From: Xylographa opegraphella
Taxonomy: Eukaryota
Reading direction: 5' to 3'
Assembly (NCBI GenBank): GCA_022813865.1
Contig: JALDZX010000001.1
Coordinates: forward strand, 558,001-622,000
Length of the DNA stretch: 64,000 nucleotides
In this document: positions 6,994 through 17,358 of the stretch, in pieces
Layout of the letters: the number at the start of each line of letters is the position of its first letter
Numbering within the stretch: position 1 is the stretch's first letter
Translations under genes and position numbers: made by a program
Notes under the pieces: model-generated
Databases searched by the model: none
What the model saw: the letters and a program-made list of their open reading frames with translations, nothing else
What the model was told of the DNA's origin: nothing

Positions 6994-8189
6994 GACGGGT
7001 GGAAGGGAGAATATCTGGAGACTGCGCCTTCTACATGAGGCGCAATATATTTAATGCTAATCACCCTTTCGGTTCTTGTTGGTATTCTATTACTTGGAGA
7101 GACCAGTCCGATGGACTGATTGTAACAATACTTGGCTTGACGAGCGACTTCCGCTCAGTCTAGCAGAACATAATGACCGATGTGAGTTCGGACTTTAAGC
7201 CATGGGGACTAACGGAGGGTTTACCCACTGAGATAAAAGTACAATTGATATCAGAGGTACCCTGAAGTACATGATATGTGTAGAACCCACATGTAAGCCC
7301 CAGTACGTCGGGTTACCTACTAACTTTCGGTACTTACTAAATTGGATGATGAGTCAGACGCCGTGCATACCGTCCAATAACACTGTGGGATCAAGGCCAC
7401 ATAAAACGTTAAGTGGTACTCCGTACTTACCCGAGCACTACTGGACTGTGGTTTGATTAGCGCCAAGGCCGATGACGATTCTATCCCGACTCCTGACCAC
7501 GACTCCTGAGCACCACCTCACCCTTAGCTTCTTGGCGGGCCCCCCACAGGTGACCAGCCACTGACGGTGGAATATATCGCCGACGCCGTGTTCAATCTCG
7601 CTGTTCTGCGTATCTCCACGACTTTTATCATTGTAGTCCTCATGTCAAGGGCCCATTGGGAATTTTTAGAAAGGTCCCACTGACCGTTCCCAGCACCAAC
7701 TGTTCCCCTGTACCTACGGCGATCAAGTCCAGCAGTTGGACCGACAGTGAAATCTAAATCTGTCCAACCCTTGACTATCCTCCTAGACACGACAGGAACG
7801 TTAGAAAGCTCCACACCTGCTCCTTCCTCCAGCTACCATTTGTTTTTCTTTATCGCGTTGGATAACTTCCAAACTGCTTGTACTCACAATCGCCGCGATC
7901 AACCTGCTGACATTTTCCGCTTGTGGCCGAAAGCTCCGTATATCAGCTTGAACATTTTCACCAAGATCCCGATCATTCTGGCACGCTGGCATCCTTTCAC
8001 CCTACCGTTGTCTCCCAGCCCCCAGATACTCAGCGTCGACGTCGGTCGTCAAGCGTCAAAGTACAGACTATACAACAAAACGCGGCGACCCTCATCAACG
8101 TTGGTGCCACGTCCGGGCTTACGGCGCGCAGCTACGTACCGTATCTGCAACCAGTCTCCGGCTCGCCATCCGTCGACGATCAATCTTTT

Positions 8190-9719
8190 ATGTCACTTTC
8201 GCGATCTCCTTCGCCCAGAGCGGGTGGGGGCTGGTCGAGCCCTGGACTTACCAGTCCTTTCGATACTTTGAGTGGGAGATCGTCTCCAAGGAAAGCATAC
8301 GGGGATTTACATATCAGCAATGGGGGCATCATGGGTAATGGAGTCACCTGGGCCTCCGCAAAAGCAAAAAGTGAAGAGGTGAATGGATATCCCTCGTTCT
8401 CAACCCGCAATAACGGCTTTTTTTCGAGAAGTGCGCGAAAGATCTCGAGTAGTTTGCCGAGATTTCACATGAGCGGTCGGCAGAATCATGCAGAGAAAGA
8501 GAAACTTGGCCGTGGAAGGTGGAACCCGAATGGAGGAAGTCGGCTTATTAGACTCAAAACACTACTTGCTTCTGTCACCCGGCGAATGAGGTTACGAATA
8601 CTTATTGTTCTTGGGATTATACTAGCCTTCGTATTATTCTATGTTACTCGTAAGCTCTTGCTTCTTTCAATGCCACTTAACGCTTATCATCAACTAGCCA
8701 TACATCGATTATATCGGCGGAGTTCCTTTCTGGGTGGTGGAAGCAAATTCGTCGTTGTTCTGGCAGCAAATCAGGGAGGAGGTGTAATGGAGTGGAAGGG
8801 TCCGAGGGAGTGGGCAATAGAAAGAGACAGCGTGAAAAACAAAAAGAAGTATGTCGCAAAATGGGGTTATGACTTGGAGATAGTGGATATGAGTACTAAG
8901 AAACGATACGCCCACGAGTGGAGAGAAAGTTGGGAGAAGGTCGATACAATGAGGAACTGCATGCGAAAATACCCGGAAGCTGAATGGTAAGTGGCCCCCT
9001 CTGTGGGAGGTCGAGAATCCTTTTCACTAACTGAGCATTATAGGTTTTGGTGGCTTGATCTCAATACCTTCATAATGGAACCCTCCTACTCTCTCCAAAG
9101 CCACATCTTCAATCAATTACCCAAGAACACCTACCGCGATATAAACGAGTACAACCCTCTTAATATCTCCCATCCCCTGACCGAAGCGTACCTCGATCCA
9201 ATCTCTCGCTCCGCCACTGGGGACAACAACCCCTCATCAATTGACCTTATCGTCCCGCAGGACTGCGGCGGCTTCAACCTAGGATCATTCTTCCTCCGAC
9301 GCTCCGCTTGGACGGATCGACTTCTCGACATCTGGTGGGACCCTGTAGCCTACGAACAAAAACACATGGAATGGGAGCATAAGGAGCAAGATGCACTGGA
9401 GCACCTCTATCTCACCCAGCCCTGGATTCGAAGTCATACCGCTTTTATCCCACAGCGGAAGATCAATAGCTTTCCGACCGGCGCTTGTGGTGAGAACGGC
9501 GAGGACCCACGCATCCACTACAAGGAGCAAGATCGAGACTTTGTCGTCAACATGGCCGGCTGTGAATGGGGCCGCGATTGTTGGGGCGAGATGTACAATT
9601 TCCGAGAGCTCAGCAACAAGCTGAATAGGACGCCGTGGGAGAAATTCAAGGATGGCATTAGCGACAGGTGGAAAGCCATGACCCAGGGTAAGAAGGAAGG
9701 AGATGGGAAACAGGGCTGA
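8190..9719 (+). CDS. mnn10: Alpha-1,6-mannosyltransferase subunit, GT34 (Mnn10-like)
   Basis: MSLSRSPSPRAGGGWSSPGL start, type II TM, KKRYAHEWRESWEK, AEW|FWWLDLNT, QDCGGFNLGSF, WEHKEQDALE, VNMAGCEWGRDCW; introns 8650-8697 and 8987-9043. Confidence 0.9.
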
Positions 9720-10724: not shown

Positions 10725-12109
10725 CTAGACTCTTATCACACTCGCGTTTCCCCATCTCAGCCGCCTGAGACTGCCACTGTACCCCTTTGTGACCTCCCTT
10801 GTACATCCACCACCACCATTGCCCGCCATCTCCAACCGTCCCACTTCTTTGCCGTACGCGAATCCGGCTGAGAAGCTGATAGCACTGAATAGTACCACCA
10901 CTCCTGCGCTAACAACCCACGTCATCAGCGTCGGAGAGATGAGCAATTCTTCGGTAGAGGATCCTCGCCGCTTTTTCTTGGTGTAACGCCGATCACGAGA
11001 TAAGGATTTGCGCTTGCCTTTCCCTTGCAGTGAGGGCGCGGTTGAAGAGGCGACCGAAGAGCGCCGAGGTATGGGAAGGGACGTTGGCTCGGGTGAAGTG
11101 GCGAGGAGAGCGGATTCCGGGACCAGTCGTAGGGAGGAAGGCTGAATCCGATTGGAGGAGCTCACAGCTACCGTAGGCTGAGTACGGCTCGACGGCTCAC
11201 GTTTAGCTAAACCACGAGCCGCTGCGGCACAGGAGAGAAGGGTGGAAAGACTGGCCCGAAGAGCTGCGTCATGGTCGGCTTGAAAGGAAGGAGAGATCAT
11301 ATTATATGGTGTGTGAGACCTAGTACGTTGTGAAGGATAGGAATGCCGTTGCGCTGTGCTTCGGGTGCTAGCAGCTTGAGATGGGAAGTATGAACCTGGG
11401 ACAGGTGCCTGTCGTGACGACTGGGAAACAGGTGGGTGGGAGAAGGCATTTGGCTGTGGGGTAAAAGCGGGCTCAACGGTGTTGCTTCCTAGCGCTGTTG
11501 AATTACCATCATCGTCTTCATCTGATGGAGCATTTTCGGAGGCAGAAGATGCGGCCGGCGGTGGACTTTCGTCTTGTGTGAAGCGCGGATGGAGGTCTTC
11601 GTTTGAGCTACTCATGATTGGATCGGATTCGCTCTCGCTTTCTTCGTACTCTTCCTGGCTACTCCCCGTAGCACTTCGAGCCCTTACAGGAAGGTCGGCT
11701 TGTAGATTTAGATTGATGGGTCGATGCAGGCGACGCCGACGCCGAGCACTGACACCGTGTTGCCCCCGATGGCCTATAGACCCACCGTCGTCGGCAGTGG
11801 CGGAGGAAAGTGAGGACGACGAGGGTTGTGAGGAAACCTCGATCCAGGATTCTGTGTAATAGTCGAATGAGTATAAAGTCTCCATGATAAGAAACGCCTC
11901 TGATGCAATGTTGCTGCGGAGAATTGTGTATGGAGTACCATCTCGACGATCAAAGCTTCGTTGTGGATGGAGGGCTTACCATCTGATCTTAATCTCCTGA
12001 CGCCTGATAGCGACCTACTGACCGTTGCTGCCTCCTGTGGCCGCTGCGTAGGAAGTCTGGCATGATGGTCTCTTACATGGCCCAGCAGATCAAGGTCAGA
12101 TGTTTGCAT
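10725..12109 (-). CDS. Uncharacterised Ser-rich single-pass membrane protein with N-terminal WxxV motif
   Basis: 386-aa ORF from ATG 11885; more likely exon 1 from ATG 12109 spliced via intron 11979-11852 (gtaagc..cacag) to give RSD|ESWIEVSSQPSSSSLSS; C-terminal hydrophobic helix LMTWVVSAGVVVLFSAISFSAGFAYG. Confidence 0.75.
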
Positions 12110-13054: not shown

Positions 13055-14749
13055 TTAAAATGTCATCTTCTTGCCTTTGAAGTCTCCAAAGCCTCCGCGG
13101 TTGGTGGAACCCCCTCGACCGCCTCGCGAACCGCCACGATCACCAAACCCTCCACGGCCGCGACCTCCGCCACGGCCGCCACGATCACCGCCACGACCAC
13201 GCCCACCTCCGAAGCTACCCCCACCACGGCCACCACGAGGCGCATCACCATTGGAAGCACGAGCACGCCCGAAGTCAAGACGGATTGGACGGCCACAGAT
13301 AGCTGCACCCTTCATGTTATCGAAAGCCGCCTGAGCATCTTCAATCGATCCAAATTGGACATAACCGAAGCCTTTGGGATTCCCACTATCTGGATCGGTA
13401 GGTAGACGAACACCTAGTACAGTACCGTGCTTCCCGAATTCTTCGCCGATGATGTCTTCAGTAGCTTCGAATGAGATGTTGCCCACAAACAATGTGTCGC
13501 TTGGCTCGCTGGGTTGATCCCCATAAGCCTTGGCACGGTCGTTGGCCTTGTTCTGGTACCCTCCGGTGCCAGCATCATTCGTTCGAGGTGCAGCAAAGTC
13601 GACGTTGATCTCTCGGTTATCAATCATCTTGCCTTTCATTGCGCTGTGGGCCTTGGCGGCATCGGCTGCATTAACGTATTCGACATAACCAAACCTGTTA
13701 TTTGTGAGTGATGGTTGCAATTGTGTAGACCAGGAACGAGTTACCCTTTAGAGCGACCCGTTGCTTTGTCGGAAATCACTCTAACTCCAGACAGCTCCCC
13801 GAAGCTCTCAAACTCACGGGTCAACCAATCTTCATCGACATTCCAAGAAAGACTGCCAACAAAGAGGTTTTTGACTCCGTCGCTTGCGACCTCGGTCAGT
13901 TCCTCCTTCTTAGCCTTCTTGGCCACAGGAGCAGCCTCAGTCTCCGCCTTCCGCTTCTTTGGGGGCGCTTCATTTTCACTCTCCTCTTCTGATGAAGAGT
14001 CAGAGTCAGCAGAGTCGCCTTCAGGAGCAGAACTCTCGTCGCTACCAGAATCATCGCTCTCGTCAGAGTCATTTTCAGAAGCCTAGAATGCTGTTAGTCA
14101 ATACTGTCTTTGAACATGAAGACTGTCAAACCTCTTTACTAGCTACGTTCATTAGTGCGCCGTTCAGCTCTTTGGCATCTATGGGACCTTTTGGCTTCGC
14201 CACATCTTCCTCATCGGACTCCTCGCTTTCGTCAGTGCCATCAGTGTCGTCAGAGTCATCTGCAGGAGCAGCCTTCTTGGCCGCTACTACGGATGCCGAT
14301 TTGGACGGAGCTGATACTTCTTCATTGTCAGACGAGTCAGAAGAGGCTGAAGAGGAATCGGTCGCAGCTTTAGCTGCGACCTTCGGGGTACCATTGACTT
14401 TGCCATTGACTTTGCCATTGGCACTGCCGTTCACCTTTGGCATAGGCATCTTGGCATCTTCGTCGGACTCGCTACTATCAGAGCTAGCACTCGTTCCCGC
14501 AGCGTCCTCACTGTCGTCACTGCTTGACTCTGGAGTAGGTTCCTTGATGACCTTTTTGGACTTCTTGTCTGCTTTGCTAGATTTATCAGCTTTTACAGCA
14601 GCGTGTTTTGCCACTTCCTGGATCTTCGCCTTCGGAGCCTGCGATTGTTTAGTTATGGTAGTCCGATTGACAGGTGTTGTAACTTTCACCTCTGTGACCT
14701 TACTAGTCTTCTCAACCTTGGAGCTCTTATCGGACTTTGATTTCGCCAT
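13055..14749 (-). CDS. nsr1: Nucleolin-like protein (Nsr1/Gar2): acidic Ser tracts, two RRMs, GAR tail
   Basis: K/A-rich and S/D/E tracts; RNP motifs LFVGSLSW, SKG|FGYVEY, LFVGNISF, KGFGYVQF; RGG tail ending FGDFKGKKMTF; introns 14131-14083 and 13744-13695. Confidence 0.92.
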
Positions 14750-15445: not shown

Positions 15446-17358
15446 ATGCTCTCTAATCACCGTTCACGTAAGAAGAAGAAGGCGGCGGTTACTACGCAGT
15501 CCACTATTGCTCAGAGTCTTGTCATTATCGATCCTAAAACGACTGAACTGGCTCCTGCTTTCCCTCTCGTCTCGTTTCTTTGGCCAGCGAGGACGTCAAC
15601 TTCGCAATGGATAGTCTTGCCATTGATCTTAATGGTGGTTGGCCTCTTCAGATGGGCGGTTGGTATATGGGGGTACTCTGGTAAGGAAGACGGTATAAAT
15701 CAATAGGATGTATCATTGACGTTGACAAAGGCTACCGAAATCCTCCAATGTATGGTGACTTTGAGGCTCAGAGGCATTGGATGGAAATCACAACTCAACT
15801 ACCGATATCCAAATGGTACTTCTATGACCTACAATACTGGGGTCTAGATTACCCGCCTTTGACTGCATACCATAGCTGGCTTTTCGGAACAATGTAAGAC
15901 TCAACATTTCATTGCTTGTGTGTGTAATACGCAACGACTGACCCCTGTAACAGTGGATTTTGGATAGAACCGAGGTGGTTCACGCTCGGAACATCAAGAG
16001 GGGTAGAAGAGCAGTTGCTCAAGGTCTACATGCGCGCGACGGTCCTTATTTCCGAGTACGTTTCCTACGTCCCAGCGGCCATTCTATTCAATCGAAAAAT
16101 TGCCAAACTACGAGGGGCCAGCGCGTGGGAGTCGGATATTGTCCTTGTGGCGGTCCTCCTGCAGCCAGCGACCATCCTCATAGACCATGCACACTTCCAG
16201 TATAATACGGTGATGCTCGGACTTGTTCTAGCAAGCATGAACAGCATTCTTGCGAATAGATACCTTTGGAGTTGCTTTTTCTTCGTGGGAGCACTTTGTT
16301 TCAAGCAGATGGCACTCTATTTCGCACCCGCAGTGTTTGCATATCTTGTCGGAATCTGTCTAATACCTCGTCCGAACGTCCTTCGATTTGTTACCGTTTC
16401 ACTAGTCACAATTCTATCATTCGCAGTGATCTTTGGACCGTTGCTTCTCGGATCACTATACGAATCAACTAAGGATTCGAAGTTGGTCGATATTCTAGAA
16501 CCACCTCCAACATTGAGGTCTTTGCCACTGCAGATCAACCCAAAGTCGTGGTACTACCCTTTGGTCCTCCAGCTTACACAATCGATCTATCGCATTTTTC
16601 CTTTCGCTCGCGGAATTCTCGAAGACAAGGTCGCCAATTTCTGGGGCTGCGTACATACCATTCACAAACTGAACTTCTATCCGACTCCAATGCTCCAACG
16701 ATTCTCAATGCTGGCAACTTTGATATCAATCCTACCAACATGTATGACGATTTCGTTGTTCCCACGAAAGGAGCTTGTACCCTGGGCCATGGCGAGCTCG
16801 GCGTGGGGGTTTTTCTTGTTCTCGTTTCAGGTTCATGAGAAGAGCGTACTACTGCCGTTGCTCCCAATGACTGTACTGCTTGGTACGGAAGGCGGTCTCG
16901 GCACTGAGATGAGAGCCTGGATCGGCTGGGCAAATACACTAGGAGTCTGGACATTATTCCCTTTGTTGAAACGGGATGAGTTAAGAGTACCTTACGCGGT
17001 GCTGACATTACTGTGGACGTACCTGCTTGGCCTACCACCCGTTTCGTGGAGTCTATACACACCTCGGCAGACTGAACTGGCCGCTCCGACGAAATTACTT
17101 CATCTTACCTTCTATATGGCAATGCTGGTATGGCATGTTCTCGAAGCATTCGTGGCGCCACCGGCTGGAAAACCAGATCTCTGGGTTGTCATCAATACAC
17201 TGATTGGGGCGGCTGGTTTCGGTATCTGTCTCTTGTGGTGCTCGTGGCAATTGATTTTGCGCAGCGGTTTGATGGAAGATTACTTTGGGGTCAGGATCAG
17301 GCTGGAAAAGCTGGGAAAAGTGGACATCAAAGAACAGAAAATTTCGAAGAGCCAATAA
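15446..17358 (+). CDS. alg6: Dolichyl-PP-Man9GlcNAc2 alpha-1,3-glucosyltransferase
   Basis: [77 protein letters not shown]; introns 15681-15730 and 15894-15953. Confidence 0.95.

Follow-up and report, generated by a model that had tools for sequence, protein, structure and literature searches.

In Atg32, Atg36, PpAtg30 and Atg19, binding to Atg11 is attributed to the consensus (D/S)ILSSS (PMC4195827), while a second account gives the Atg11-binding motif as (I/V)LS and reports that CK2 phosphorylates and activates Atg32 (PMC5792711). Two reviews report no orthologue of Atg32, Atg30 or Atg36 in filamentous ascomycetes (PMC7711908, PMC8226480), and the pathway there accordingly has an empty slot. 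For filamentous fungi, reviews of 2022 and 2026 name only Atg24-type, prohibitin-linked and SUN-family factors and MoAti1; NBR1 is reported as a pexophagy receptor in Sordaria (PMC7711908). Here we describe a gene from a 64,000-nucleotide stretch of Xylographa opegraphella DNA, called the window below, to whose positions all coordinates refer. The gene lies on the minus strand, from 12109 to 10725, and encodes a protein with an Atg8-type motif near its N-terminus, an Atg11-like motif at the end of an acidic serine tract, and a single predicted membrane helix near its C-terminus. Judging from these motifs and their conservation, the gene product is best read as an organelle-anchored Atg8 receptor, and we give roughly even odds (about 0.5) to the proposal that this membrane-anchored protein works as a selective-autophagy receptor of the Atg32 type.

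Residue numbers are those of a 386-residue form of the protein; 32 is added to obtain the numbering of the spliced form. Conservation was counted in 91 diverse members of the family, all pairwise less than 60% identical, among which mean column identity is 21%. The features that bear most directly on the proposed receptor function are these:

11802..11849, minus strand: Atg8-interacting-motif-like S-W-I-E-V-S-S-Q-P-S-S-S-S-L-S-S, residues 13-28, with the W codon at 11846-11844
11598..11663, minus strand: acidic CK2-type Ser tract S-S-Q-E-E-Y-E-E-S-E-S-E-S-D-P-I-M-S-S-S-N-E, residues 75-96, ending in an Atg11-binding-like motif
10833..10934, minus strand: single predicted transmembrane helix, residues 318-351 (AlphaFold2; block means of the predicted local distance difference test, pLDDT, 79-85; Kyte-Doolittle grand average of hydropathy, GRAVY, 1.7-2.0)
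10839-10877, minus strand: S/G-xxx-G-xxx-G-xxx-G zipper, residues 337-349, with G341 and G345 in 91/91 and [SGT]xxxGxxxGxxxG in 85/91

Tryptophan 14 is present in all 91 members. It is preceded by Ser13 in 90 of them and by an acidic residue at position 12 (Asp in 45, Glu in 44), and is followed by Ile (54) or Val (37) at position 15, Glu (79) or Asp (10) at position 16, and Ile (46), Val (38) or Leu (7) at position 17. The pattern [DE]SW[IV][ED][IVL] matches 86 of the 91, the strict motif occurs in 110 of 150 representatives, and the family form of residues 12-28 reads [DE]-S-W-[IV]-E-[IV]-S-S-Q-P-S-S-S-S-L-S-S. Because Trp14 is invariant in a family whose mean column identity is so low, the motif represents more than chance. 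A preliminary description of the locus had proposed its W-x-x-V core as an Atg8-interacting motif, and the motif proves to be strongly conserved. The D-S-W-V-E-I core of many members is the same as that of the F178W peptide of the optineurin LC3-interacting region, which is reported to bind LC3B with a dissociation constant of 19.1 uM, and sevenfold more tightly when the preceding serine is phosphorylated (PMC12368060). A serine, the regulatory phosphosite of optineurin, thus precedes the aromatic residue in both, although optineurin itself is a soluble, ubiquitin-binding animal adaptor and the likeness is confined to the motif.

The order hydrophobic, hydrophobic, acidic, hydrophobic, followed by a serine run, is also akin to phospho-regulated SUMO-interacting motifs. 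The N-terminal motif might then be one of these, or some other beta-strand-addition motif, and the protein a SUMO-dependent membrane adaptor. We consider this very improbable, as an invariant tryptophan at the first position (91/91) marks out an Atg8 motif and would be uncommon in a SUMO-interacting motif. Moreover, the identical core DSWVEI is the one reported to bind LC3B in vitro (PMC12368060).

What the preliminary description overlooked is that the acidic serine tract ends in D-x-[IV]-[ML]-[ST]-S-S, akin to the Atg11-binding consensus. The family form of residues 75-96, S-S-Q-E-E-Y-E-E-S-E-S-E-S-D-x-[VI]-[ML]-[TS]-S-S-N-E, contains six S-x-x-[DE] sites. Asp88 is found in 88 of the 91 members and Tyr80 in 84, while the terminal motif takes the form [IVL][LM][ST]SS in 67 and matches [IV]LSSS exactly in 14. 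Because the tract ends in this way, Atg32 rather than BNIP3 is the closer functional analogue.

AlphaFold2, run with the 91 sequences, gives a mean pLDDT of 54 and places helices only at residues 202-222, 257-260 and 318-351, two of them long, with no folded domain in the predicted cytosolic arm; a disordered arm carried on an anchor is a receptor-like layout. Strung along this otherwise disordered protein are about a dozen (at least ten) strongly conserved short motifs, which include the following in addition to those above:

residues 48-52: R-R-R-R-R, a conserved short motif of the 91-member alignment
residues 124-133: an acidic run followed by T-A-L-G, a further conserved short motif of that alignment
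11430..11465, minus strand: linear motif F-T-P-Q-P-N-A-F-S-H-P-P, residues 141-152 (P143 in 91/91, F141 and F148 in 89/91, N146 in 88/91)
11202..11282, minus strand: helix Q-A-D-H-D-A-A-L-R-A-S-L-S-T-L-L-S-C-A-A-A-A-R-G-L-A-K, residues 202-228 (AlphaFold2 helix 202-222, pLDDT block means 74-78)
11112..11132, minus strand: L-R-L-V-P-E-S, residues 252-258 (R253 in 79/91, V255 in 71/91, P256 in 79/91, E257 in 80/91)
10965..11021, minus strand: juxtamembrane basic patch K-G-K-R-K ... K-K-K-R-R, residues 289-307 (K291 in 82/91, R292 in 87/91, K303 in 79/91, R306 in 78/91)
10752..10775, minus strand: basic motif G-S-L-R-R-L-R-W, residues 371-378, within the tail past the membrane, itself about 40 residues long (L373 in 77/91, R374 in 70/91, R375 in 75/91, W378 in 67/91)

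Within the helix at residues 202-228, R210 is invariant and L209, S212, L213, L216 and L217 are each kept in 90 of the 91 members. The SWIEV motif, this central helix and the transmembrane zipper are strongly conserved across Pezizomycotina, as is the basic patch, and every sequence feature that the preliminary description listed is present on the minus strand where it had been placed. Counting on the translation puts the net charge of the tail beyond the membrane helix at roughly +4 to +5. A model of a zipper dimer, made from two copies of residues 300-386, scored 0.05 against a mark of 0.32; it was run without controls and has no bearing on dimerisation.

A set of at least ten separate linear motifs suggests a hub with several partners, and such a hub need not belong to autophagy. 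The protein might be a membrane-anchored scaffold or tether, for example a contact-site protein whose E-E-Y-E-E-S-E, resembling a two-phenylalanines-in-an-acidic-tract (FFAT) motif, binds VAP of the endoplasmic reticulum while other motifs recruit kinases and phosphatases. Tyr80 is well kept within that acidic tract, and L-R-L-V-P-E-S is compatible with the PP2A-B56 docking pattern LxxIxE, as a candidate site; the link of the protein to autophagy, for its part, is a proposed one, drawn from its motifs. However, glutamate is suboptimal at FFAT positions 3 and 4, and a scaffold or tether would leave unexplained both the conserved [DE]-S-W-[IV]-E-[IV] and its co-occurrence with a (D/S)ILSSS-like motif. 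We regard such a role as unlikely.

The family to which the protein belongs is undescribed, is conserved across filamentous ascomycetes, and has neither a name nor a match to a known family. A search with the single protein returned 1882 proteins at E<=0.001 from 8000 candidates scored, and a profile of 31 sequences, compared with 1.84 billion representatives, found 274 clusters at E<=1e-3, of which 250 reached E<=1e-10 and 191 reached E<=1e-30. The best 150 of the 274 clusters were listed. Of 30 clusters examined, 13 had a named source organism, in every case one of the Pezizomycotina. Named members come from Phaeomoniella, Arthroderma, Elasticomyces, Salinomyces, Neophaeotheca, Thermochaetoides thermophila (CTHT_0060170), Neurospora, Sordaria, Sarea, Cirrosporium, Sclerophora, Glutinoglossum and Podosphaera, and two further searches list many Sordariomycetes among the members. 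Lecanoromycetes, Eurotiomycetes, Dothideomycetes, Sordariomycetes, Leotiomycetes, Geoglossomycetes and other classes are represented; the placement of Xylographa and Glutinoglossum was checked against taxonomy. The closest named relatives come from Xylographa species, at 90% and 87% identity, which identifies the source of the window as a lichen-forming fungus. The members from Sordaria brevicollis and Neurospora have 439 and 443 residues, respectively.

Source databases call the members "hypothetical" or "uncharacterized", apart from a few spurious-looking labels, and we found no paper that describes the family or a transmembrane receptor of Pezizomycotina in literature searches whose coverage excluded most subscription journals; a full-text search for the motif letters returned no fungal paper. 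The preliminary description had likewise recognised no described function. Four proteins (P0283, P0304, P0344 and P0352) are labelled "REJ domain-containing protein" or "Glucan 1,4-alpha-glucosidase"; Pfam scans of the family give these labels no support, and they probably stem from Ser-rich low-complexity stretches. Scans of Pfam-A by hmmscan, for 31 members at E<=1 and for one member (P0001) at E<=10, assign the protein to no Pfam family and return sub-threshold noise only (PNRC, Herpes_pp38 and others). The family profile had 0 matches to PDB chains at E<=10, and the ESM Atlas yielded unnamed Ascomycota clusters only, with no named cluster.

Comparison with described receptors places the protein nearest to Atg32 in layout. 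Published accounts of Atg32 (PMC5792711, PMC4195827) give it a cytosolic N-terminal arm that carries first an Atg8 motif and then an Atg11-binding motif in a CK2-type Ser/acidic context; the family protein shows an Atg8-type motif and an Atg11-like motif in the same order and in a similar context. Atg32 further has one membrane helix close to its C-terminus and a short stretch past the membrane, as is predicted for the family protein. The differences are several. Atg32 has a pseudo-receiver domain, whereas AlphaFold2 predicts no folded domain in the arm of the family protein. The Atg11-like motif of the family has an extra residue and mostly Met and Thr, and fits the consensus loosely in 67 of 91 members and exactly in only 14; its spacing differs too, with about 74 residues separating the Atg8-type and Atg11-type motifs. 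The family helix is a glycine zipper, and the family occurs in Pezizomycotina, from which Atg32 is reported absent. No sequence similarity to Atg32 was shown; the family profile matched no PDB chain at the threshold given above.

The preliminary description had called the protein BNIP3/NIX-like. Its gene model, the conservation of its motifs and its status as an undescribed family all stood, but the label does not hold as a statement of family membership. BNIP3 and NIX do share with the family an N-terminal S-W-x-E-hydrophobic motif with a phosphorylatable serine and a C-terminal helix with a ladder of small residues, in proteins otherwise disordered. Nevertheless, the scans of Pfam-A, which we take to contain a BNIP3 model, gave no BNIP3 match (31 members at E<=1, one at E<=10), nor did the profile match any PDB chain at E<=10, and for these reasons the protein is not filed as a BNIP3/NIX member. 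The family protein is about twice as long as BNIP3/NIX, with many extra conserved motifs and, as is typical of receptors in fungi, a motif of Atg11 type. True homology blurred by strong divergence could account for the joint presence of the S-W-hydrophobic-E-hydrophobic motif and the small-xxx-small ladder, but short motifs and glycine zippers arise convergently, and we judge common descent with BNIP3/NIX to be extremely improbable. Regulation of BNIP3 is reported at Ser17 and Ser24 (PMC5792711).

The fission-yeast mitophagy receptor Atg43 (SPAC14C4.01c), of the DUF1770 family, did not efficiently co-precipitate Atg11 (PMC7609059). Like the present family, it is described as having an N-terminal Atg8 motif (Y28-E-L-I31), a C-terminal membrane segment and a conserved C-terminal region (PMC7609059). 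The family, however, carries an Atg11-like motif, in contrast to the poor co-precipitation of Atg11 by Atg43, and lacks a DUF1770 match in the Pfam-A scans, at the thresholds given above; it is therefore not a member of the Atg43/DUF1770 family. In Sordaria, SMAC_04227 was proposed from motifs alone as a euascomycete Atg32-like receptor (Kueck and Stein 2021; PMC8226480). Its listed phosphosites extend to S732, and from length alone (more than 732 residues, against 439-443 in the Sordaria and Neurospora members) we infer that it is a different protein. MoAti1 of Magnaporthe resembles the family in being a fungal-specific, Atg8-binding mitochondrial protein, but is reported to have no predicted transmembrane domain where the family has one (PMC10938464).

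The gene has two exons, with its ATG at 12109 and its stop codon at 10727-10725, and the spliced coding sequence encodes 418 residues:

11980..12109, minus strand: exon 1 of the long isoform, with 43 complete codons, then the opening base of a split D/E codon, and with a conserved start M-Q-x-S-x-L-D-L-L-G and a conserved end R-R-L-R-S-D
11852..11979, minus strand: intron 1, 128 nucleotides, phase 1, with donor G|GTAAGC at 11979 and acceptor CACAG ending at 11852
11883..11885, minus strand: in-frame ATG inside intron 1 (METLYSF...), the start of the 386-residue database model
11872-11867, minus strand: branch-point-like ACTCAT of intron 1, read from the window sequence
10728..11851, minus strand: exon 2 coding sequence, comprising the two remaining bases of the split codon and 374 codons, followed by the stop codon at 10725-10727

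The junction in the window product reads RLRSD-E-SWIEVSSQPSSS. Intron 1 was compared in 81 sources, namely the window and 80 orthologous loci from metagenome contigs; in 74 of these, the SW motif was preceded by 75 nucleotides or more, and these gave 55 unique stretches. Because the metagenome loci include some redundancy and are related by phylogeny, a count such as 30 of 30 introns, given below, does not represent independent events. A YAG acceptor ends exactly two nucleotides before the Ser codon, in the same phase, in 53 of the 55. One exception (L078) has AAG. In the other (L068, match near 412) the intron has been precisely lost, and the sequence reads ...RRINDESWIEI, which is the spliced junction. 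For 39 unique introns of 48-157 nucleotides, an upstream ATG-started open reading frame (ORF) ends in R-x-[SN]-[DE] and is followed by a G|GT donor, and most of these have a CTRAC-like branch point within the final 45 nucleotides. The acceptors, the exon-1 ORFs with their GT donors and the intron loss in L068 together support the intron at 11979-11852 and the spliced N-terminus, both of which had been proposed from the window sequence in the preliminary description.

N-termini of the 91 diverse members agree with this model. Many database models from other classes join an exon-1-like M-Q-P-x-N/H-x-D/E-L-L-G ... R-x-R-S/N-D/E directly to [DE]SW, and others read through the intron (...R-S-D-G-K...). 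In an alignment of 31 Lecanoromycetes, YSFDYYTE before SW appeared conserved, but the conserved "YS[FL]" in these database models is what the branch point tACTCAy yields when translated. A reading of METLYSF/YSFDYYTE as coding sequence with no intron was rejected on the orthologous YAG acceptors, the exon-1 ORFs with donors and the L068 junction.

Exon 1 (11980-12109, minus strand) opens with M-Q-P-x-[NH]-x-[DE]-L-L-G, conserved across classes. In some lineages this start reads [YF]-[DE]-L-L and resembles a second Atg8-type motif; its aromatic residue is not conserved. V-R-R-L-R-S-D-E-S-W (11980-11995, minus strand) is compatible, as a candidate site, with the Snf1/AMPK pattern, which has a hydrophobic residue at -5, a basic residue at -3 or -4 and a hydrophobic residue at +4.

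The 386-residue database model (P0003), 100% identical to the window, begins at the intronic ATG, and close relatives are annotated in the same way. Public annotations of the gene are inconsistent, as only 69 of 416 database proteins carry the spliced junction, while 71 read through the intron and 151 start inside it (including P0003, P0004 and P0007); the remainder comprise 79 other or long models and 46 without the N-terminal motif. Still, the intronic start cannot be put down to faulty annotation alone, because all 30 unique long introns (>=90 nucleotides) keep an in-frame ATG that is open through the acceptor, whereas the two control frames do so in 2 and 6 of the 30. The distance of this ATG varies, from 24 to 120 nucleotides, in at least 12 sequence groups, and the variant branch point ACTCAY is used in the frame where ACTAAC or ACTGAC would give stop codons. 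Six of nine short introns (<90 nucleotides) are multiples of three (L061, L073, L074, L077, L079 and L080), and their retention would keep the frame. This pattern suggests that translation has a conserved second start at the intronic ATG, and two N-terminal isoforms, one spliced and one intron-started, seem to exist; the short one could arise from an internal promoter.

A mechanism can be drawn up from motif grammar and conservation, on which the binding events, the topology and the organelle proposed here all depend. The protein would be anchored in an organelle membrane by its one C-terminal helix, its disordered cytosolic part forming a string of short docking motifs. The N-terminal [DE]-S-W-[IV]-E-[IV]-S-S would bind Atg8; the acidic serine tract, after phosphorylation by a kinase of CK2 or CK1 type, would present D-x-[IV]-[ML]-[ST]-S-S to Atg11, whose recruitment would start phagophore formation on the organelle that carries the protein. 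The glycine-zipper helix and basic tail would hold the protein in place and might allow oligomerisation, and the helix at residues 202-228, FTPQPNAFSHPP and LRLVPES would probably bind regulators. The spliced form would set the basic, phosphorylatable R-R-L-R-S-D before the Atg8 motif, and the intron-started form an aromatic/acidic peptide. The fullest version of this proposal, in which the protein is the long-missing membrane-anchored mitophagy receptor of filamentous ascomycetes, of Atg32 type, binding Atg8 through [DE]SW[IV]E[IV] and Atg11 through the phosphorylated D-x-[IV][ML][ST]SS tract and tuned by two conserved isoforms that swap the flank of the Atg8 motif, is in our view less likely than not.

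Our guess at the target organelle puts mitochondria first, then peroxisomes, then the endoplasmic reticulum or nuclear envelope. Among tail-anchored proteins, moderate hydrophobicity with basic flanks directs proteins to the mitochondrial outer membrane or to peroxisomes, and the moderately hydrophobic helix of the family protein (GRAVY 1.7-2.0), with its basic flanks, fits either. A selective-autophagy receptor for peroxisomes, or for the endoplasmic reticulum or nuclear envelope, rather than for mitochondria, is a possibility to which we attach limited weight. Its K-x-K-R-K ... K-K-x-R patch adjoins the helix, the tail is positively charged as noted, and these basic features are akin to the signals that target proteins to the peroxisomal membrane and to a bipartite nuclear localisation signal; the helix and its flanks, however, suit the mitochondrial outer membrane equally. 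That no orthologue of Atg30 or Atg36 is known in filamentous fungi, according to the review cited above (PMC7711908), leaves room for a peroxisomal receptor, but NBR1 already has that role in Sordaria (PMC7711908).

Several points weigh against a receptor of the Atg32 type. Motifs of WxxV type are common, and a hydrophobic core with a serine run suits a phospho-regulated SUMO-interacting motif as well; strong Atg8 motifs do not usually have a basic flank such as the RRLRSD of the spliced isoform. The Atg11-like motif differs from the consensus in having one extra residue between the Asp and the hydrophobic pair, with Met (51/91) commoner than Leu (34/91) and, at position 92, Thr (48/91) commoner than Ser, and E-E-Y-E-E-S-E in the same tract could be a VAP-binding motif of FFAT type. 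Pfam-A scans of members and the PDB profile search detected no sequence link to BNIP3, Atg43 or Atg32, and the sequence does not specify the organelle.

The neighbouring genes form an ordinary fungal context and offer no functional hint:

7911-9719, plus strand: GT34 (Mnn10/Gma12-type) glycosyltransferase, identified by a profile match
13058-13747, minus strand: RRM-domain protein
15928-17358, plus strand: ALG6/ALG8-family glycosyltransferase

The GT34 domain is split over two ORFs in the same frame by a stop codon at 8988-8990, with profile positions 4-78 on one side and 79-238 on the other, and about 18 unmatched residues follow the stop. A short intron is the simplest explanation.

Among the filamentous ascomycetes are major pathogens of plants and humans, industrial moulds and lichen fungi. 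Atg24, MoAti1 and NBR1, put forward to date as substitutes for the receptors that these fungi appear to lack, are soluble or peripheral proteins. A membrane protein found throughout Pezizomycotina, with an Atg8 motif and an Atg11-like motif, is a concrete receptor candidate, and may be the receptor that filamentous fungi were thought to lack. If this is true, receptors of the same pathway would once more have arisen independently, with identical short motifs set on unrelated anchors. If real, the pair of conserved N-terminal forms at the Atg8 motif would represent an unusual mode of receptor regulation.

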